A stretch of 64,000 nt of DNA from an uncultured Faecalibacterium sp. (GTDB lineage: Bacteria; Bacillota; Clostridia; Oscillospirales; Ruminococcaceae). Below, piece by piece: positions 3,853-54,663 of this stretch. The notes below the pieces were generated by a model. The model was not told the DNA's origin and searched no databases. It saw only the letters and a program-made list of their open reading frames with translations. The stretch is taken from positions 18,804-82,803 of the forward strand of contig CAKSXE010000002.1 of NCBI GenBank assembly GCA_934514285.1. The letters are read 5' to 3'. The position numbers and the translations under genes are program-made. Numbering within the stretch: position 1 is the stretch's first letter; every line of letters begins with the position of its first letter.

Positions 3853-4096
3853 AACCTCTCCGTCATTGCTTCGCAATGCCACTGTCCGGGTTGCGGCACC
3901 CAGCATCCGCAGCGCTTTGCTTGCGTCTTGCTGGCCGCGGCCCCAACAGCGACTCCCTGTTTCCGCCACTGGCGGCGGTCGTCGTTGTTGCCCCTAACGA
4001 GGGGAGGCTTTGGCAGTCCTCGCAAAGTGAATGGTTTCGCCAGAGGCTCCCCTCGGTAGGGGAGCTGTCGAGCGTGAGCGAGACTGAGAGGTTGAG
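3853..4096. repeat. mosaic hairpin-rich intergenic repeat, copy A (R1 termini with an internal M2 module)
   Basis: aacctctccgtcat ... gaggggaggctttggcagtcc.cgcaaagtgaa.ggtttcgccagaggctcccct ... gactgagaggttg; shares sequence with the copies at 8.4, 20.1, 21.6 and 36.0 kb. Confidence 0.8.
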
Positions 4097-8387: not shown

Positions 8388-8528
8388 GTACAACCTCTCC
8401 GTCATCGCTGACGCGATGCCACCTCCCCTAGTAGGGGAGGCTTTGGCAGTCCCCGCAAAGTGAACGGTTTCGCCAGAGGCTCCCCTACTAGGGGAGCTGT
8501 CGAACGAAGTGAGACTGAGAGGTTGTAC
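8388..8528. repeat. mosaic hairpin-rich intergenic repeat, canonical ~140-bp R1 unit, copy B
   Basis: gtacaacctctc...gagaggttgtac terminal inverted repeats enclosing three perfect hairpins: cgtcaTCGCtgacg, cctcccctaGTAggggagg and gctcccctaCtaggggagc. Confidence 0.85.
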
Positions 8529-8711
8529 AAAGGACAGCCTGACCATGGACGAAAGGCTCAATTTTTTGCGCTCCCGGCTTGCAAAAAAGCGGCCATCAGA
8601 GTAGAATAATAACATATGTATCGTAACATGGGCCTGTATACCCAAACGCGGATACATATACCGTAATTTGTCCGCATATCCACCCATGAACAGAGAGGAA
8701 ACGTGGAGTAT

Positions 8712-20131: not shown

Positions 20132-20268
20132 ACCTCTCCGTCACGGCTTGCGCCGTGCCACCTCCCCTACCGAGGGGAGGCTTTGGCAGTCCCCGCAAAG
20201 TGAACGGTTTCGCCAGAGGCTCCCCTACTAGGGGAGCTGTCGAACGGAGTGAGACTGAGAGGTTGTAC
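20130..20268. repeat. mosaic hairpin-rich intergenic repeat, R1 unit, copy C (overlaps the rsgA stop)
   Basis: ~90% identical to copy B across ~139 bp. Confidence 0.85.
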
Positions 20269-20305
20269 TAAGACGGGCCTGCCCATCATAGAAAGAAGGA
20301 AACCC

Positions 20306-21224: not shown

Positions 21225-21257
21225 AAGCAGTAGCCTTGTAAACTTTCTGTGCAAAGC

Positions 21258-21285
21258 TTGACTTTTGCGGGGAATGGCATATACT
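21258..21285 (+). promoter_or_regulatory. sigma-A-type promoter of antisense sRNA, TA locus 1
   Basis: TTGACT, 16-nt spacer, TATACT; preceded by the conserved gtaaactttctgtgcaa box shared by all four loci. Confidence 0.6.
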
Positions 21286-21291
21286 AAAGAT

Positions 21292-21372
21292 GGAATTGTG
21301 AGGATATTCCATTCGGTACACCAAAAAGAAAAGCCCCCAAGGAGTTGCGACCTCCCCGGGGGCTTTCCATTT
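21292..21372 (+). ncRNA. candidate antitoxin sRNA (RNAII-like), locus 1
   Basis: Runs from the promoter to the bidirectional terminator aagcccccaaggagttgcgacctccccgggggctt; contains tgtgaggatat.tccattcggtacacc, same-sense to the plus-strand text over the toxin SD/start and therefore complementary to the toxin mRNA. Confidence 0.5.
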
Positions 21373-21475
21373 AGTCGGGCTTGCGGTCCTTGTCGAATCT
21401 GTCAAGCCACTTGCAGATGTAATGCGACATTACATTTGCTACGACAGACTCCAAAATCGTGAGGATATGAATCAT
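21371..21475 (-). CDS. candidate type I toxin peptide, 34 aa (Fst/Ldr-like)
   Basis: MIHILTILESVVANVMSHYICKWLDRFDKDRKPD; hydrophobic helix, then WL and a charged tail; GGGAGGTG RBS; last 34 codons of tool ORF 21371..21727(-). Confidence 0.6.
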   Translation of the reverse strand: MIHILTILESVVANVMSHYICKWLDRFDKDRKPD

Positions 21476-21574
21476 CAGGTACACCTCCCTTCCCAAGTAA
21501 GATGGGCGGGATGAACCGCAAAACAAGTATATCATAAACTTCGGCAAAAAGATACAGGAAACGATGCGGGATGC

Positions 21575-21632
21575 CAAGGCCTCCCCTACTAGGGGAGGTG
21601 GCATCGCGTCAGCGATGACGGAGAGGTTGTAC
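21575..21632. repeat. partial inverted copy (left half) of the R1 repeat, copy D
   Basis: gccaaggcctcccctactaggggaggtggcatcgcgtcagcgatgacggagaggttgtac is the reverse complement of the R1 left arm. Confidence 0.75.
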
Positions 21633-21828
21633 AAAGACGGGCTTTGCCACAAAGGAAAAGCTCTCTCAAGACTTTCCACGATTTTTCGCGAAAAGTACCG
21701 AATAATTAACGTGCTGCCGATAAACATGAACTTTCAGCCCCCCTCAAAACCCCAAAAAAGTATGTACTGTTCCGCTCCTTCCATTTGTGCTATGCTCAAT
21801 GCATCAAACACAAATGAAAGGAGTTTTT

Positions 21829-23250
21829 ATGCAGAAAAACATGACCGACCGCACCCCGGGCAGCTACGACGACTTCGTGGCCTACCTCGGCACGGTGCGC
21901 ACCCAAGAGGAGCTGTTCTCCCGGCTGACCTACTGGTTCGCCGGGCAGGACCGCCCCGAGGACGTCCTCAGCCGCTCCGAGCTGGTGGAGGCGAGGGCGA
22001 AGGAGCTGGGCTTCTGGCAGGGTCTGACCTTCCGGATGGAGCGCTGGCTGACCGACGGCAAGAGCGAGCTGGAAGCGGTGGGCCGGGAGGAGTTCCAGAG
22101 CCGCATCGCCGAGGACTACGCCGCCTACCGGGAAAAGGCCGACGCGGCCCGGGCGCGCTTCCGGGACCGCCGCCGCGCCGCGCCCCTCAACTTCACCCCC
22201 GACTGCCTCGAGAACGTCCCCATCCAGAACGTGAGCTGGCTGGTGGAGGGGCTTCTGCCCATGGGAGAGGTGTCGCTTCTGGGTGCCGACGGCGGCACCG
22301 GCAAGGGCATCTGGCAGGCCCAGCTCATCGCCTATGTCACGGCGGGAAAGACCTCCGGCTTCTTCCCCCAGCCACCGGAGAAGACCGGCAGCGTCCTCAT
22401 CTTTTCCGGCGAGGACGACCCCGGCAAGGTGCTCAAAGCCCGCCTGACGGCGGCAGGGGCCGATATGAGCCGGGTGATGGTGGTCACCAGCGACGCCTAC
22501 TTTGCCCGCACCGGCAGCCCGCTCTGCATCCCGGACACGAGCTTTGCAAAGTACGTGGGGAAGGCCGCGCCCGCCCTCGTCATCATCGACCCGCTGCAGA
22601 GCTTTCTGCCTGCGGGGGTGGAGATGGCCAGCCGCAACCAGATGCGCAGCGCCCTGCTGCCCCTCAAAGCCCTCTGCGCCAAGCACGGCTGCGCGGCCCT
22701 CATCTCGATGCACACCAACAAGCGCGCCAACGTCTCGGGCCGCGCCCGTCTGGCCGACAGCTCCGACATCTGGGACATCGCCCGCAGCGTCCTCATGATG
22801 GGCCGCGACAAGAACAGCGAAAAGCTCTACCTCAGCCACGAGAAGAGCAGCTACTCCGCCCCGGCCCGGACGGCCCTGCTCCACATCGAGCAGGCGCAGG
22901 TGGAGGGGGTCACCACGGCGGTGGCCGTCTTTGACAGCCGCACCGACAAGAAGGACGCCGACTTCGTGGAGGAGCGCCGCGTCCGCACCGCCCAGACCAA
23001 GGAGGATACCGCGCAGGCCATCCTCAACGTGCTGGCCGAGAGCAAGCTGGGGAGTATGCCGAATACCCAGCTGAGGGCGGAGGTGATGAAGGAGATGGGG
23101 TGCAGCGAGAAAACATATAACCGCGCATATAGCGAGCTGGCGAAAAGCGGCGAGATAAAAAAGCAACAGTTCAATCAGAAAAACGGTACTCGAGGCTGGT
23201 TCACGTTTCTGGGCTACTGTAGTAAAACAAATGACCAAGTGACCATTTAA
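21829..23250 (+). CDS. RepA-like AAA_25/RecA-fold ATPase with C-terminal wHTH (plasmid/ICE replication or primase-helicase loader-type)
   Basis: Walker A LGADGGTGKG; LIFSGEDD; Walker B VIIDPLQSF; C-terminal wHTH-like tail; AAAGGAG RBS before MQKNMTDR. Confidence 0.6.
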   Translation: MQKNMTDRTPGSYDDFVAYLGTVRTQEELFSRLTYWFAGQDRPEDVLSRSELVEARAKELGFWQGLTFRMERWLTDGKSELEAVGREEFQSRIAEDYAAYREKADAARARFRDRRRAAPLNFTPDCLENVPIQNVSWLVEGLLPMGEVSLLGADGGTGKGIWQAQLIAYVTAGKTSGFFPQPPEKTGSVLIFSGEDDPGKVLKARLTAAGADMSRVMVVTSDAYFARTGSPLCIPDTSFAKYVGKAAPALVIIDPLQSFLPAGVEMASRNQMRSALLPLKALCAKHGCAALISMHTNKRANVSGRARLADSSDIWDIARSVLMMGRDKNSEKLYLSHEKSSYSAPARTALLHIEQAQVEGVTTAVAVFDSRTDKKDADFVEERRVRTAQTKEDTAQAILNVLAESKLGSMPNTQLRAEVMKEMGCSEKTYNRAYSELAKSGEIKKQQFNQKNGTRGWFTFLGYCSKTNDQVTI

Positions 23251-23403
23251 TAATATATCTACGTTGTATTTTGTCAGTTGGTCAGTTTGGCCAAGTGACT
23301 ATGATTGACCAAGTGAGTCAGTTGGTCAGCCCTGCTCACTTGGTCATCTTGGTCAAGTGAGTATTTGAACGTATCAACGATTGAAAAATGTCAGTTGGTC
23401 AGA
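23232..23403. repeat. iteron-like array of TGACCAA/TTGGTCA repeats
   Basis: TGTCAGTTGGTCAG three times; CCAAGTGA four times direct plus one inverted; begins within the last codons of the RepA-like gene. Confidence 0.75.
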
Positions 23404-23445
23404 TAACCCGCCCCTCTCAGAGCAGCAATCTCCGAAAGGTTTTTT

Positions 23446-23727
23446 ACCCTCTCAGGCGCTCCGCGCCAGCTCCCCCAGAGGGGGAGCCCTTGGCAGGCCG
23501 GGCCACTTTCGCCTGACCGCTGAAGGCCCGACGGGGCGCAAAAGGGCGGGCCTTGCTTACGGGGATAGCGGCTTCTGGACAACGCACCCTGTCAAGCTGT
23601 CGCTGGCCTAGACAGCGGAGCACTACAGCCCACGAAACGAATAAACTTTGCTCGTCCAGTGGGAACTTGCCCGACACGCCAGAGGCTCCCCCTCTGGGGG
23701 AACTGGCGAGCGGAGCGAGACTGAGAG
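23446..23727. repeat. long mosaic repeat E1 (M3 module plus an R1-like right end)
   Basis: Segment 23468-23665 is ~80% identical to the reverse complement of 27270-27460; right end ccagaggctccccctctgggggaactggcgagcggagcgagactgagaggg is R1-like. Confidence 0.75.
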
Positions 23728-23840
23728 GGCAAACCTGCGTGAATCGCCCCAAAACCTGCGCGAATGGCCGTTGCGGCTGCGGCGGGAGCCGGGTTATAAT
23801 GGAAGTGTCAAAAACACCACAGTGAACGGAGGATACGACC

Positions 23841-24365: not shown

Positions 24366-24394
24366 TGTGCGCTTGTAAACTTTCTGCGCAACGC

Positions 24395-24422
24395 TTGACT
24401 TTTGCGGGGAATCGCATATAAT
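24395..24422 (+). promoter_or_regulatory. promoter of antisense sRNA, TA locus 2
   Basis: TTGACT, 16-nt spacer, TATAAT; conserved upstream box. Confidence 0.6.
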
Positions 24423-24428
24423 AAAAGT

Positions 24429-24516
24429 GATAAAGGTAGAAGCAAATAGTCCATTGGCTCACCCAAAAGGAAAGACCCCCTCCCGGAGCTGCAATCTCCG
24501 AAAGGGGGTCCTTTTT
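24429..24516 (+). ncRNA. candidate antitoxin sRNA, locus 2
   Basis: Ends at terminator gaccccctcccggagctgcaatctccgaaagggggtc + T-run; gataaaggtagaagcaaatagtccattggctcacc mirrors the toxin 5' region. Confidence 0.5.
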
Positions 24517-24616
24517 AGTGCTTACGGCCCGTCAGCCATCCGTCAAGCCACTTGCAAATGTAGTAAGACGCTACATTCGCTGCGACGGACAGGATAAAGG
24601 TAGAAATAGACTCCAT
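24515..24616 (-). CDS. candidate type I toxin peptide, 33 aa (Fst/Ldr-like)
   Basis: MESISTFILSVAANVASYYICKWLDGWLTGRKH (own translation; below the 60-aa ORF cut-off); RBS GGGAGGTGAAG. Confidence 0.6.
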   Translation of the reverse strand: MESISTFILSVAANVASYYICKWLDGWLTGRKH

Positions 24617-24740
24617 TGGGCTTCACCTCCCTTCCCATAAAATGGGCGGGCAAGGCCGCAAAATAAGTATACCATAAACTTCGGCAAAAAGATACAATAA
24701 ATGCCAAGAGAAGAGTGACTGTAAACTTTCTGTGCAACGC

Positions 24741-24768
24741 TTGACTTTTGCGGGGAATCGCATATAAT
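24741..24768 (+). promoter_or_regulatory. promoter of antisense sRNA, TA locus 3
   Basis: TTGACT, 16-nt spacer, TATAAT. Confidence 0.6.
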
Positions 24769-24774
24769 AAAAGT

Positions 24775-24866
24775 ACGAAAGAAAGAATGATGGTTTCCAT
24801 TGTTCTCACCAAAGCAAAAGAAAACCCCCTCACGGAGTTGCCGCTCCGAAAGGGGGTCTTCTTTAT
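24775..24866 (+). ncRNA. candidate antitoxin sRNA, locus 3
   Basis: Terminator aaaaccccctcacggagttgccgctccgaaagggggtcttcttt; gtacgaaagaaagaatgatggtttccattgttctcacc mirrors the toxin 5' region. Confidence 0.5.
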
Positions 24867-24968
24867 TTAGTGCTTACGGCCCGTGAACCATCCATCAAGC
24901 CACTTGCAAATATAGTAAGCTGCTACATTTGCTCCGACAGACAGTACGAAAGAAAGAATACTTTCCAT
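24867..24968 (-). CDS. candidate type I toxin peptide, 33 aa
   Basis: MESILSFVLSVGANVAAYYICKWLDGWFTGRKH (C-terminus of tool ORF 24867..25268); RBS GGGAGGTGAG. Confidence 0.6.
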   Translation of the reverse strand: MESILSFVLSVGANVAAYYICKWLDGWFTGRKH

Positions 24969-25176
24969 TTTTCTCACCTCCCCTCCCGAATAAATGGGCG
25001 GGCAAGGCCGCAAACCAATTATAACATAGATTTTCGACAAAAGATATAGAAATAAACAAATCTGCCGTAATGGAAATCCCCCAAGGAGTTGCGACCTCCA
25101 TGGGGGATTTTTGTTCTGCTCCCTTCCCACCCCGCATACACTCTCATCAGAGCAAGGACAGGAAAGGAGCATCACC

Positions 25177-26718: not shown

Positions 26719-26746
26719 GCGAAGTTGTAAACTTTCTGCACAGCGC

Positions 26747-26774
26747 TTGACTTTTGCGGGGAATGGCATATACT
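26747..26774 (+). promoter_or_regulatory. promoter of antisense sRNA, TA locus 4
   Basis: TTGACT, 16-nt spacer, TATACT. Confidence 0.6.
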
Positions 26775-26780
26775 ATAGAT

Positions 26781-26868
26781 AGTGAAAGTAGAAATTGAGC
26801 TAGTCATTTGGCTCACCAAGAAGAAAACCCCCTCCCGGAGTTGCCGCTCCGAAAGGGGGTCTTCTTTT
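26781..26868 (+). ncRNA. candidate antitoxin sRNA, locus 4
   Basis: Terminator aaaaccccctcccggagttgccgctccgaaagggggtcttctttttt; tgaaagtagaaattgagctagtcatttggctcacc is ~35/40 identical to the plus-strand text over the toxin SD/start. Confidence 0.5.
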
Positions 26869-26970
26869 TTAGTGCTTACGGCCCGTGAACCATCCGTCAA
26901 GCCACTTGCAGATGTAGTAAGATGCTACATTTGCTGCGACGGACAGAATGAAAGTAGAAATACTAGGCAT
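26869..26970 (-). CDS. candidate type I toxin peptide, 33 aa
   Basis: MPSISTFILSVAANVASYYICKWLDGWFTGRKH (C-terminus of tool ORF 26869..27069); RBS GGGGGTGAGAC. Confidence 0.6.
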   Translation of the reverse strand: MPSISTFILSVAANVASYYICKWLDGWFTGRKH

Positions 26971-27065
26971 TTGTCTCACCCCCTTCCCAATAAAATGGGC
27001 GGGCAAGGCCGCAAAACAAGTATACCATAAACTTCGCCAAAAAGATACAGGAAGCGATGCGGAAT

Positions 27066-27506
27066 GCAAAAGCCTCTCCCCTTGGGAGAGGTGTCACCGA
27101 AGGTGACGGAGAGGGCAGGCCCGGCACGAAAGAGCCGCTGCACAGCGATAAGCAGGCTCTTTGTCAGAGCGATACTATCGCTGGGCTTTCGCTTCTCCGT
27201 CAGCATCCTTGCCCTCTCAGTCGGGCTTGCGCCCGCTAGCTCTCCCAAAGGGAGAGCCTTTGGCATGTCGGTCAGGCTTCCACTGGACGAGCAAAGCACG
27301 ATGTCTCGGAAACAGTAGTGCTCCGCTGTCTAGGCTCACGGCAGCTTGACAAGGCGCGCTTGTCCAGAAGCTGCTGCCCTCTGTAGCAAGGCCCGCCCTT
27401 TTGCGCCATATCGGGCCATAGGCAGGCAGTAGGAAGTGGCCCGGCCTGCCAAGGGCTCCCCCTTTGGGGGAGCTGGCGAACGAAGTGAGACTGAGAGGGC
27501 AACCCC
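27066..27506. repeat. long mosaic repeat E2 (inverted M3 module plus an R1-like end)
   Basis: Contains the inverted ~200-bp homolog of E1 and the R1-like end ccaagggctccccctttgggggagctggcgaacgaagtgagactgagaggg. Confidence 0.75.
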
Positions 27507-27631
27507 ATAAGTACGACTTATGACGAAAATATGAATAAAAACTTAAAAAAACTCTACCGTTCCCGGTTCCGGTCTGCTATAATTTTTTATGCTTGTTACA
27601 AAACCTGAAGTGAAGTAAAGGAGCCAGGAAT

Positions 27632-35960: not shown

Positions 35961-36257
35961 GGAGGGGAGGCCTTGGCATTTCGTAAAGCTTGGCCTCTTC
36001 GCCAGAGGCTCCCCTACTAGGGGAGCTGTCGAACGAAGTGAGACTGAGAGGTTGTACGAAGGGAAGCCTGACCGTGAGCCGCTGCTGGACTCAACCTCTC
36101 CGTCAGCGCTGACGCGCTGCCACCTCCCCTACCGAGGGGAGGCTTTGGCAGTCCCCGCAAAGTGAACGGTTTCGCCAGAGGCTCCCCTACTAGGGGCAAC
36201 GGCGATGACCGCCGCCAGCGGCGGAAACAGGGAGTCGCTGTTGGGGCTGCGGCCAGC
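35961..36257. repeat. mosaic intergenic repeat copy E (R1 right half + full R1 + inverted M2 module)
   Basis: Two successive ...gagactgagaggttgtac / caacctctccgtca... units, followed by ggggcaacggcgatgaccgccgccagcggcggaaacagggagtcgctgttggggctgcggccagc (reverse complement of the copy A insert). Confidence 0.8.
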
Positions 36258-36363
36258 AGGATGCAAGCGACAGCGCACAGCACAATAAACAAACAAAAGC
36301 GCCGCCGACGGCCTCAAAACCGTCAGCGGCGCTTTGCTTATTCAGTCAACAGCGGTCAATGGA

Positions 36364-53435: not shown

Positions 53436-53511
53436 GCTACTGTGGCTCAGCCGGTAGAGCAGCTCACTCGTAATGAGCAGGTCGTCCGTTCGAATCGGAT
53501 CAGTAGCTCCA
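53436..53511 (+). tRNA. tRNA-Thr (anticodon CGT)
   Basis: Cloverleaf drawn by hand: acceptor GCTACTG/CAGTAGC, D-arm GCTC-AGCCGGTA-GAGC, anticodon stem GCTCA/TGAGC with loop CTCGTAA, T-arm GTCCG-TTCGAAT-CGGAT, discriminator T, encoded CCA. Confidence 0.85.
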
Positions 53512-53515
53512 AAGT

Positions 53516-53566
53516 AAAATCCCCGAAAAGTGGCTTCACGCCTAGCTTTTCGGGGATTTTTGTTTG
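53516..53566 (+). terminator. terminator after tRNA-Thr; also direct repeat DR-L
   Basis: aaaatccccgaaaagtggcttcacgcctagcttttcggggatttttgtttgg. Confidence 0.75.
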
Positions 53567-53697
53567 GTTTTATCTGTAAGTAACTACGGAATTGCCAAGT
53601 GGCATCGTTAAGGACAAAATCATAGCCAAGCTATACTCTTTTGTTGACATGGCTTTACCTGCGTGATACAATGCAGATTGTAAGGGGGCGAAAACCG

Positions 53698-54611: not shown

Positions 54612-54663
54612 AAAATCCCTGAAAAGTGGCTTCGCGCCTAGCTTTTCGGGGATTTTTACTTGG
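54612..54663. terminator. bidirectional terminator; also direct repeat DR-R (about 46/50 identical to DR-L)
   Basis: aaaatccctgaaaagtggcttcgcgcctagcttttcggggatttttacttgg. Confidence 0.7.

Follow-up and report, generated by a model that had tools for sequence, protein, structure and literature searches.

Four paralogous loci, each ~330 nt long and here numbered L1 to L4, were identified within the window, the 64,000-nt stretch of DNA that was analysed as a whole. Each consists of a small ORF on the minus strand that faces a convergent predicted sRNA on the plus strand (Table 1). All four copies are chromosomal and located between housekeeping genes, in host DNA with a GC content of ~60% across the window. 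The putative toxin ORF of L2 shares 100% identity with a Faecalibacterium prausnitzii UT1 locus.

Table 1. Position and composition of the four loci and their predicted parts
Locus	Feature	Position	Strand	Remarks
L1	Whole locus	21230-21570		
L1	Predicted sRNA	21292-21373	+	Promoter 21258-21285; repeat copy 21294-21322; terminator 21327-21373
L1	Putative toxin ORF, 34 aa, MIHILTILESVVANVMSHYICKWLDRFDKDRKPD	21371-21475	-	Start-side repeat copy 21455-21485; extended -10 21526-21534
L2	Whole locus	24367-24705		
L2	Predicted sRNA	24429-24517	+	Promoter 24395-24422; repeat copy 24429-24463; terminator 24467-24517
L2	Putative toxin ORF, 33 aa, MESISTFILSVAANVASYYICKWLDGWLTGRKH	24515-24616	-	Start-side repeat copy 24593-24627; extended -10 24666-24674
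L3	Whole locus	24713-25060		
L3	Predicted sRNA	24775-24869	+	Promoter 24741-24768; repeat copy 24772-24810; terminator 24816-24869
L3	Putative toxin ORF, 33 aa, MESILSFVLSVGANVAAYYICKWLDGWFTGRKH	24867-24968	-	Start-side repeat copy 24943-24978; extended -10 25018-25026
L4	Whole locus	26719-27065		
L4	sRNA promoter (consensus scan)	26747-26774	+	-35 TTGACT 26747-26752, 16-nt spacer, -10 TATACT 26769-26774
L4	Predicted antitoxin sRNA, ~90 nt	26781-26870	+	Fold: 5' domain and terminator hairpin, -39.9 kcal/mol
L4	DRa-like repeat copy, sRNA 5' domain	26783-26817	+	Antisense to the toxin translation-initiation region
L4	Bidirectional intrinsic terminator	26821-26870	both	Common to sRNA and toxin mRNA (perfect 3' overlap)
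L4	Putative toxin ORF, 33 aa, MPSISTFILSVAANVASYYICKWLDGWFTGRKH	26869-26970	-	
L4	DRb-like repeat copy on the toxin mRNA	26949-26980	-	SD 3' part, spacer, AUG, codons 1-8
L4	Predicted toxin mRNA, ~204 nt, 48-nt 5' UTR	26809-27012	-	Stem-loop over the GGG of the SD region
L4	Toxin promoter, extended -10 (TGGTATACT)	27019-27027	-	TGnTATA(A/C)T kept in 4/4 loci

Promoters, terminator and predicted RNAs

Promoters were predicted at consensus level in all four loci, with the form TTGACT-16-TATA(A/C)T on the plus strand and TGnTATA(A/C)T on the minus strand. The promoter block of the L4 sRNA is invariant across the four paralogs, and its 20-mer has exact matches in >120 metagenome contigs. The predicted sRNAs are ~85-95 nt in length and begin about 80-95 nt beyond the toxin stop codon; for L4 the start was placed about 7 nt past the -10 element and the 3' end at the T-run beyond the terminator. 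Predicted starts of the toxin mRNAs lie near 21519 (L1), 24659 (L2), 25011 (L3) and 27012 (L4). That both RNAs are made, and from these start sites, we infer.

Directly after the toxin stop codon lies a G+C-rich hairpin with T-runs flanking it on both strands. Because both transcripts would end at this same bidirectional terminator, the sRNA and the toxin mRNA are predicted to be fully complementary at their 3' ends, over 47-55 nt of perfect complementarity. The YUNR U-turn motif is absent from the terminator loops (GUCGCAA, AUUGCAG and CGGCAA), and it is not present in all par/Fst homologs either (PMC7472228). A peptide-coding role for the plus-strand RNA was rejected, as its sole ORF (26782-27030) must read through the terminator. 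Rfam searches at the gathering threshold returned only a tRNA in the whole window. The plus-strand sRNAs matched no curated Rfam family, save for a chance-level His_leader hit (E = 6.7) over L1, and the minus-strand matches over the terminator, to rdlD (18 bits) and ohsC (21.3 bits), were far below threshold.

Both the MFE and the centroid folds of the toxin mRNA predict, in all four loci, a CCC…GGG stem-loop that partially covers the SD, on its 5' side. The 5' end of the mRNA (GCGGCCU) is also predicted to pair in every locus with GGGCCGU adjoining the stop codon. This helix shows a U-A to C-G covariation in L1 and is kept across homologs (cognate -10.1 vs -7.2, p = 1e-10).

A direct repeat links each predicted sRNA to its own toxin start

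A bipartite direct repeat of 30-39 nt is found in all four loci, with the first copy at the predicted 5' end of the sRNA and the second at the toxin start. Since the toxin is encoded on the minus strand, the copy on the plus strand reads antisense to its mRNA. The initial annotation had described a near-copy of the toxin SD and start text within the sRNA body. At L4 the strings are indeed present, 164-166 nt apart on the plus strand, and although the identity then given (about 35/40) was slightly generous, the likeness is real: of 31 aligned positions 29 match, and the sRNA copy carries a 3-nt insertion (z = 12.3, local alignment against dinucleotide shuffles). The same pattern had been claimed for the other three loci and was recovered there with z values of 6.5 (L1), 9.6 (L2) and 16.9 (L3).

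Counted from the A of the AUG, RNAduplex puts the duplex at about -12 to +26 on the toxin mRNA, where it takes in codons 1-8 together with the AUG, the spacer and the 3' part of the SD (GGUGA). The suggestion that the sRNA could pair over the toxin RBS and AUG is borne out for the AUG, the spacer and the SD 3' part, while the SD core GGAGG is covered only partly. Locus-specific mismatches were also said to be mirrored between the two copies, and they largely are: 17 columns vary among the four loci, 12 of them mirrored in all four, and 56 of the 75 pairwise differences on the toxin side recur on both sRNAs.

When each sRNA was compared with cognate and non-cognate toxin leaders by RNAduplex, cognate duplexes reached -38.3 to -46.5 kcal/mol. 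Non-cognate pairs gave -17 to -28.5 kcal/mol and shuffle controls -17 to -20 kcal/mol (sd ~3). Cofolding of full-length molecules gave cognate gains of -53 to -60 kcal/mol. Pairing is thus energetically in favour of each sRNA's own toxin, as had been proposed, but the insulation envisaged between paralogs is partial because the L3 and L4 terminators are near-identical (52/55), the L3 x L4 cross pairs gaining about -32 kcal/mol through the terminator alone. In the predicted folds of the L3 and L4 sRNAs, part of the pairing region is held inside the molecule's own hairpin, so pairing would require this to open.

Conservation and covariation in homologous loci

Of 77 homologous loci from Oscillospiraceae, Lachnospiraceae, Negativicutes and other Firmicutes, 69 carry the repeat at the same place (z > 4), and a sigma-70-like antisense promoter is located 6-16 nt upstream of it in 47/58. 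Across homologs pairing extends over positions -10 to +22 and is weaker between +4 and +9. Among 66 non-redundant loci the mean cognate energy was -43.3, compared with -25.0 (sd 5.7) for non-cognate combinations, and the own toxin was the best target of the sRNA in 55, so that cognate preference extends to other genomes. Co-variation in homologous loci was likewise strong: of 1257 cells 96.6% are paired, the shares for shuffled and slid controls being 59.4% and 39-45%, in an alignment which was assembled from pairwise-aligned positions and so leans toward pairing. Twenty-three of 26 pairs vary on both sides, and among close Faecalibacterium relatives 27 columns hold at least two different matched states.

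Perfect overlap at the terminator could in principle be the means by which the antisense RNA acts, through RNase III-type degradation as in 3'-overlapping Bacillus systems, the 5' repeat then being secondary or a vestige of a partial duplication of the toxin 5' end. Such a duplication is a plausible source of a direct repeat, and both the extent of the terminator complementarity and the L3 x L4 gain through that element would suit this route; however, a decaying duplication is not expected to yield covariation and G·U-biased mismatches, and the repeat is restricted to the ribosome-binding window and kept in position among diverged loci. We consider this route unlikely.

The mismatches themselves are strand-asymmetric, 59 being G·U-compatible and 12 A·C (p = 3e-5 after composition correction), which argues for selection on RNA-RNA pairing and not on repeat identity at the DNA level. 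Were the repeats DNA-level features with no RNA-RNA function, whether protein binding sites or tracts subject to intralocus gene conversion (concerted evolution), symmetric mismatch types would be predicted in place of the 59:12 ratio of G·U-compatible transitions seen in the sRNA:mRNA orientation. Conversion between ~35-bp repeats ~165 bp apart could likewise produce mirrored differences, yet the repeat starts 6-16 nt past the antisense promoter and its limits match those of the ribosome-binding window. The DNA-level explanation was rejected because of the G·U asymmetry, and we regard it as scarcely credible.

The YICKWLD peptide family

The putative toxins are 33-34 aa in length and consist of a hydrophobic helix, an invariant YICKWLD and a polar or charged tail. 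W23 is invariant and positioned between the helix and the charged C-terminal tail, as in the Fst/Ldr superfamily. Mean Kyte-Doolittle hydropathy over residues 3-21 is 1.2-1.6, and between 5/12 and 9/13 of the tail residues are charged. Members of the family were found in 176 genome stretches and form at least 1098 clusters at 50% identity. Homologs are 27-35 aa and are annotated only as 'hypothetical'; small plasmids also carry homologs that have the same repeat architecture and lack annotation. One of these plasmids is pSP28 of Streptococcus (2.4 kb), whose record contains a single annotated feature, and a homolog is likewise present on pEfm12493. Occurrence on such small plasmids fits a stabilisation toxin.

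Curated toxin models did not recover the family. Neither Pfam PF13955 (Fst_toxin) nor NCBIfam NF033608 (type_I_tox_Fst) matched the four window peptides or three plasmid homologs at E <= 10, and two other homologs searched against Pfam likewise gave nothing at this threshold. Of 36 family members compared with NF033608, one reached E = 0.32, while the positive controls Fst and PepA1 scored 34.7 and 58.3 bits with this model. Searches of Pfam, NCBIfam and PDB sequences with the toxins returned only chance-level matches (DUF2158, ATPase_gene1 and a glucosidase). The A-P-x3-G(C) motif is absent: the window peptides have S-V-(A/V/G)-A-N, with no proline, and homologs have S-x3-G/N/S, so the broader form 'P/D/S/T-x3-G' is found only in homologs carrying the G. 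By hhalign, the 36-sequence alignment tentatively matched Fst and PepA1 over its full length and in register with a probability of 82% (E = 1e-5), against a template of two sequences and with a possible contribution from TM composition bias.

The literature on type I toxin-antitoxin systems or sRNAs in Faecalibacterium and Lachnospiraceae yielded nothing on the YICKWLD family, the string 'CKWLD' was not found in any relevant paper, and no transcript, 5'-end or toxicity evidence for any family member was found in the papers and databases consulted. The family may already have been counted under 'Ldr/Fst', among the sequences from Clostridium bolteae and S. pneumoniae that Fozo et al. 2010 termed 'Fst-like'.

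A peptide that escapes the curated toxin models, and whose window copies sit on the chromosome among housekeeping genes, might instead be a physiological small membrane protein tuned by an antisense RNA, in which case the loci would not be addiction or stress modules. We find this improbable. Homologs are carried by very small plasmids that have hardly any other genes, the peptide bears the TM-Trp-charged-tail signature of the Fst/Ldr superfamily (PMC7472228), and the in-register hhalign match, albeit to a template of two sequences, points the same way, as do weak matches of 15/36 members to a C. difficile type I toxin model. Translational silencing at several layers is, moreover, typical of toxic peptides.

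Proposed mode of control and its significance

We consider it probable that all four loci are type I toxin-antitoxin modules of the par/Fst style, in which the 5' repeat of each sRNA blocks translation of its own toxin. An extended -10 promoter would drive a minus-strand mRNA of about 200 nt encoding the 33-34-aa membrane peptide, and the strong TTGACT-16-TATA(A/C)T promoter would drive the convergent plus-strand sRNA of ~85-95 nt. The toxin mRNA is presumably poorly translatable by itself, with a 5' stem-loop on part of the SD and its 5' end paired near the stop codon. As the first ~35 nt of the sRNA would nearly repeat, in two blocks, the plus-strand sequence that spans the toxin initiation region, the sRNA can pair with that region of the mRNA. 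One block (B) is predicted to pair at about -10 to +3, that is, with the SD end, the spacer and the AUG, and the other (A) at +10 to +22, over codons 4-8, leaving a small internal loop at codons 2-3. A duplex in this place lies inside the ribosome footprint and would hence block 30S binding and toxin translation. Because the repeat differs between paralogs and co-evolves within each locus, each sRNA is expected to prefer its own toxin mRNA.

The repeat, its position, the duplex energetics, the conservation of the architecture, the covariation and the G·U bias were all computed; beyond them, we infer a block of translation by the pairing and toxicity of the peptide. The par-type mechanism put forward in the initial annotation is in keeping with the convergent promoters, common terminator, DRa/DRb-like repeats, 5' stem-loop and 5'-3' helix, all of which were found, as predictions. 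The computational tests proposed with it, of duplex energies and of co-variation, all favoured its interpretation, which is supported.

On balance, and with some reserve, we favour the wider view that the YICKWLD peptides and their convergent sRNAs constitute a large, Firmicutes-wide, unannotated type I toxin-antitoxin family of at least 1098 clusters at 50% identity. Such a family would reside on the chromosomes of gut Clostridia and Negativicutes and on plasmids of Enterococcus, Streptococcus, Ligilactobacillus and Aerococcus, would have no Pfam or NCBIfam model and a streptococcal mRNA filed in Rfam as an sRNA, and would have diversified in Faecalibacterium into co-resident paralogs with largely orthogonal antitoxin 5' domains. 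The control scheme is that already known from Fst/par, and what is attached to it is a widespread, so far unannotated, toxin family. Since the mechanism would be textbook par/Fst biology, the view of type I systems is left unchanged, and the value lies in annotation and in a study system. A very common small ORF of gut commensals (Faecalibacterium, Lachnospiraceae and Oscillospiraceae) and of small Gram-positive plasmids gains a testable function. The four co-resident paralogs, whose repeat differences are mirrored and whose terminators are partly common, form a compact natural experiment, in which it can be asked whether the 5' repeat or a terminator kissing site sets cognate specificity. If the wider view is true, the Faecalibacterium paralogs offer a natural system for the evolution of sRNA-target specificity after duplication.

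Comparison with known systems

The closest likeness is to par of Enterococcus faecalis pAD1 (Fst RNA I / RNA II). Par/Fst loci have convergent promoters, a common bidirectional terminator, DRa/DRb repeats, a stem-loop at the SD and an mRNA 5' end that is sequestered in a helix, and divergence of the repeat sequences is thought to insulate co-resident par paralogs (Weaver 2020, PMC7472228). The window loci likewise have predicted convergent promoters and a predicted common bidirectional intrinsic terminator, oppositely transcribed direct repeats through which the 5' region of the sRNA is complementary to the site of toxin initiation, a predicted 5' stem-loop at the SD together with an mRNA 5'-end helix, and repeats that diverge between paralogs. 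Unlike Fst, however, the toxins miss PF13955 and NF033608, carry S-x3-N/G/S in place of A-P-x3-G and have the invariant YICKWLD. They also differ from pAD1 par in lacking YUNR in the terminator loops, in the ~60% GC of the host window and in having four copies, all on the chromosome.

Fst-Sm/srSm of Streptococcus mutans and Lpt RNA I/RNA II of Lactobacillus rhamnosus plasmids are par-like systems, chromosomal or plasmid-borne, with a ~70-110-nt sRNA that starts ~100 nt beyond the toxin stop and crosses repeats overlapping the start codon, and with UH and SL elements in the toxin 5' UTR (PMC3543317, PMC5608710). The geometry in the window is the same, the predicted sRNA start being about 80-95 nt beyond the stop. 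However, the toxins of those systems have the APxxxG Fst motif, and CD-search or HHpred connected them with Fst, whereas the peptides described here fail the curated models and are tied to Fst only by the pairwise hhalign comparison (82%).

SprA1/SprA1AS of Staphylococcus aureus, which encodes PepA1, also resembles the window loci, where a 3' overlap is combined with an sRNA 5' domain complementary to the toxin start. Sayed et al. 2012 reportedly established that the non-overlapping 5' domain of SprA1AS, and not the 3' overlap, represses translation by pairing with the RBS and start of the SprA1 toxin. SprA1/SprA1AS repression is summarised in PMC7472228. PepA1 matches NF033608 at 58 bits, unlike the window peptides, which miss this model.

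Type I toxins of Clostridioides difficile (NF047374) are similarly small hydrophobic peptides of Clostridia under antisense RNA control, a control that is predicted in the present loci. Weak matches to NF047374 were obtained for 15/36 family members (best E = 0.003); at ~17 bits against a cutoff of 60, and with a profile of 51 positions against peptides of 27-35 aa, the family is not a member.

The minus-strand toxin mRNAs match Rfam RF02442 (SpF66_sRNA, Streptococcus) from end to end, with 34.6 bits for L3, 27 for L4 and 18.8 for L1. All three are below the gathering score of 42, the L3 match (24813-25011, minus strand) being still significant (E = 1.5e-5). The RF02442 consensus holds an SD, an AUG and the ORF MSLILELVLTIIADVIAGIILYFVCKWLD, which has the CKWLD motif in common with the window toxins, so that it appears to be a homologous toxin mRNA. 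Rfam, in contrast, types RF02442 as an sRNA gene, and this 'sRNA' family can now be reread as a toxin mRNA.

Organization of the four loci

Two conserved motifs led to four paralogous units in the window, L1 to L4, each roughly 330 nt long and a predicted toxin-antitoxin (TA) locus. Their alignment has a mean column identity of 81%, and L2 and L3 are arranged in tandem. In each unit a plus-strand promoter (TTGACT-16-TATA(A/C)T) leads into a variable stretch of about 40 nt. Next comes a hairpin rich in G+C with T-runs on both strands, and the stop codon of a minus-strand ORF of 33-34 aa, the predicted toxin, abuts this hairpin. The ORF is preceded by a GGAGGTG Shine-Dalgarno sequence (SD), a leader of 48-50 nt and an extended -10 promoter that is conserved (TGnTATA(A/C)T). 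The predicted plus-strand sRNAs, putative antitoxins of 83-96 nt, consist of a pairing domain and the terminator hairpin.

Together with roughly 25 nt of preceding sequence, the sRNA promoter forms a block of about 50 nt (TGTAAACTTTCTG…GCTTGACTTTTGCGGGGAAT) that is nearly invariant among the paralogs, while the transcribed parts have diverged. The 20-nt sRNA promoter, used as query in a metagenome scan, was found exactly in more than 120 gut contigs, often in several copies per contig, and yielded 90 usable Faecalibacterium-type units. This suggests a conserved regulatory site extending beyond the core promoter.

Positions of the four loci and of other features in the window
Feature	Positions	Strand	Remark
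L1	21230-21570		peptide MIHILTILESVVANVMSHYICKWLDRFDKDRKPD
L2	24367-24705		peptide MESISTFILSVAANVASYYICKWLDGWLTGRKH
L3	24713-25060		peptide MESILSFVLSVGANVAAYYICKWLDGWFTGRKH
L4	26719-27065		peptide MPSISTFILSVAANVASYYICKWLDGWFTGRKH; contains initially flagged 26779-26985
Near-invariant promoter blocks	21237-21285, 24374-24422, 24720-24768, 26726-26774
SpF66_sRNA sub-threshold matches	24813-25011, 26816-27007, 21325-21513	minus	RF02442
GC-rich palindromic repeat copies	3919-4053, 8388-8559, 20164-20299, 21572-21663, 23411-23735, 27064-27510, 35962-36268	both
AAA_25-domain ORF	21787-23250		487 aa
Iteron-like repeats	23231-23402		TGTCAGTTGGTCAG x3, TTGACCAAGTGAGT x3
Solitary terminator-like hairpin	25069-25118		AAATCCCCCAAGGAGTTGCGACCTCCATGGGGGATTT + T-run
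tRNA gene	53436-53508
Terminator-like hairpin, two copies	53516-53567, 54612-54663		92% identity

Direct repeat and predicted pairing

In all four loci the plus-strand text across the toxin start recurs, nearly unchanged, right behind the plus-strand promoter, as the initial annotation had proposed (z = 6.5, 9.6, 16.9 and 12.3 for L1 to L4 against dinucleotide shuffles). This bipartite repeat has an indel of 2-3 nt between its blocks; for L4 the identity, first given as about 35/40, comes closer to 29/31 with an additional 3-nt insertion. Because the toxin ORF lies on the opposite strand, the predicted plus-strand RNA would be antisense to the toxin mRNA at the toxin start. Cognate duplexes, between sRNA and toxin mRNA of one locus, gave RNAduplex energies of -39.3 (L1), -39.3 (L2), -46.5 (L3) and -38.3 (L4) kcal/mol, compared with -17.0 to -28.5 kcal/mol for non-cognate pairs and -16.8 to -19.6 kcal/mol (sd ~3) for shuffled sRNA 5' domains, a separation that favours the proposed pairing. 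On the toxin mRNA the duplex takes in GGUGA, the 3' portion of the SD, then the spacer, the AUG and some eight codons; the suggested coverage of both SD and start thus holds for the AUG, with the SD core covered only in part. The four loci share 25 aligned columns. Variation is seen in 17 of these, and in 12 of the 17 it is mirrored in all four loci; among 75 pairwise differences in the toxin-side copy, 56 are mirrored in both sRNAs, bearing out the locus-specific co-variation described initially.

Specificity between the paralogs is mixed: the 5' repeats are clearly cognate-specific, yet the terminators are not, being identical at 52/55 positions between L3 and L4 and at 44-45/55 between L2 and either of these. 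Full-length cofolding gained -53 to -60 kcal/mol in cognate pairs, about -32 kcal/mol for L3 with L4, -19 to -24 kcal/mol for L2 with L4, and 0 to -7 kcal/mol for L1 with the other loci. Complex formation in par is reported to start at the terminator loops (PMC7472228), and if this is valid here cross-talk among L2 to L4 would be possible. The insulation initially suggested is therefore partly supported: it applies to the 5' repeats and may be weakened by the terminators of L2 to L4.

Conservation and covariation in homologous loci

A significant direct repeat was found in 69 of 77 usable homologous loci. One copy lies around the toxin start, from about -10 to +23, the other 50-120 nt past the stop, and in 47/58 loci a sigma-70-like antisense promoter precedes the repeat by 6-16 nt. 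Over 66 non-redundant loci the mean duplex energy was -43.3 kcal/mol for cognate and -25.0 kcal/mol (sd 5.7) for non-cognate pairs, and in 55 of them the sRNA paired best with its own leader when tried against all 66. By position, pairing extends from -10 to +22 and is reduced between +4 and +9. In a fixed-register two-block alignment, which was built from pairwise-aligned positions and so leans toward pairing, 96.6% of 1257 cells are standard pairs (59.4% with partners shuffled among loci, 39-45% with the register slid) and both sides change in 23 of 26 pairs. Among close relatives, the Faecalibacterium-type units, 27 columns hold at least two different matched states, implying parallel changes in both repeat copies. 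Judged from these alignments covariation of the repeat is strong, and the expectation that it would be kept in homologous loci is upheld.

Mismatches within the repeat are strand-asymmetric, as selection on an RNA duplex would produce: read in sRNA:mRNA orientation, 59 transitions leave G·U and 12 give A·C in diverse loci (p = 7e-9; 3e-5 after base-composition correction), the corresponding counts in the Faecalibacterium units being 13 and 4. Gene conversion, or protein binding to the DNA repeats, would not yield this asymmetry.

Among the exceptions are a minority of homologous loci (L006, L059, L072, L077, L029 and L067) in which loss of the repeat is accompanied by a read-through or truncated ORF or by a weak SD. 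They are probably decayed copies, which suggests that toxin and pairing site are lost together.

Genomic context

L1 to L4 are intergenic among chromosomal genes, neighbours being a PASTA kinase, RsgA, thiamine pyrophosphokinase, an AAA_25 protein, a lipoprotein-like ORF, a SipL-domain protein and a xanthine/uracil permease. An intergenic repeat that is dispersed, GC-rich and internally palindromic (core GCCAGAGGCTCCCC…GGGGAGCTG…GAGACTGAGAGG) has copies directly adjoining L1, L2 and L4, and two copies, an inverted pair (119 nt, 84%), bracket the L2-L4 region. The family has no match in Rfam and looks like a REP/MITE-like element. Short iteron-like direct and inverted repeats lie just downstream of the AAA_25 ORF and may be what is left of a small integrated replicon beside the TA copies. 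The solitary hairpin, which sits between the promoter of the L3 toxin and the SipL-domain gene, is very similar to the L1 terminator and may be a fifth-locus relic or a read-through stop. Elsewhere, the hairpin following the tRNA gene recurs 1.1 kb downstream in a lower-GC stretch (45-52%).

The predicted toxin family and its plasmid homologs

The toxin family is present in 176 genome stretches, and an exhaustive profile search gave 1098 clusters at 50% identity, with source names solely 'hypothetical' or 'uncharacterised'. The L2 peptide has a 100% match in Faecalibacterium prausnitzii UT1; further homologs occur in many Oscillospiraceae, Lachnospiraceae and Selenomonadaceae, and in Phascolarctobacterium, Lachnoanaerobaculum and Solobacterium. 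Using tblastn, unannotated homologs were identified on 39 plasmids, including Ligilactobacillus salivarius plasmids. All three plasmid loci examined (L081, E. faecium pEfm12493; L082, the 2.4-kb S. pluranimalium pSP28; L083, L. salivarius p1) carry the repeat after the terminator, the toxin not being annotated in the plasmid records. Such homologs fit a post-segregational-killing origin.

The peptides carry the Fst/Ldr superfamily signature (hydrophobic helix, invariant Trp, polar/charged tail), and hhalign aligned the family in register with Fst and PepA1 at 82% probability. However, the toxin does not match Pfam Fst_toxin or NCBIfam NF033608, the latter of which the controls Fst (34.7 bits) and PepA1 (58.3 bits) do match, it lacks the A-P-x3-G motif, and 15 of 36 family members match the C. 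difficile type I toxin model only weakly (about 17 bits, cutoff 60). For these reasons we regard it as Fst/Ldr-superfamily-like and do not place it in the Fst family. The family is without a label in current protein and RNA libraries, and may overlap the 'Fst-like' sequences reported in Clostridiales and S. pneumoniae (Fozo et al. 2010). Rfam SpF66_sRNA matches the minus-strand toxin mRNAs below threshold (34.6 bits, E = 1.5e-5). Since its consensus, with SD, AUG and an ORF ending …VCKWLD, encodes MSLILELVLTIIADVIAGIILYFVCKWLD, it looks like a streptococcal homolog of the toxin mRNA, and RF02442 probably represents the mRNA of a type I toxin, not a non-coding sRNA.

Comparison with par-type systems

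Loci of the par type are defined by convergent promoters, a bidirectional terminator, DRa/DRb repeats over the initiation region, a 5' stem-loop over the SD and a 5' upstream helix (Weaver 2020, PMC7472228), a scheme also reported for Fst-Sm/srSm (PMC3543317) and Lpt (PMC5608710). In predicted folds of the toxin mRNAs (~200 nt) CCC in the leader is paired to the GGG that marks the 5' edge of the SD, and the very 5' end of the mRNA (GCGGCCU) to GGGCCGU beside the stop codon; L1 has GCGGUUC/GGACCGC, a U-A to C-G exchange. Homologs show this 5'-3' helix as well (cognate -10.1, non-cognate -7.2 kcal/mol, p = 1e-10). L1 to L4 differ from par in lacking the YUNR loop motif, which is not universal among par-like loci (PMC7472228). 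From duplex energies, conservation in homologs, covariation and architecture, all obtained by sequence analysis, the initially proposed par-type pairing of the sRNA over the toxin start emerges as the best-supported mechanism, and on this reading L1 to L4 are an instance of the known par-type type I TA scheme, built on a predicted toxin family.
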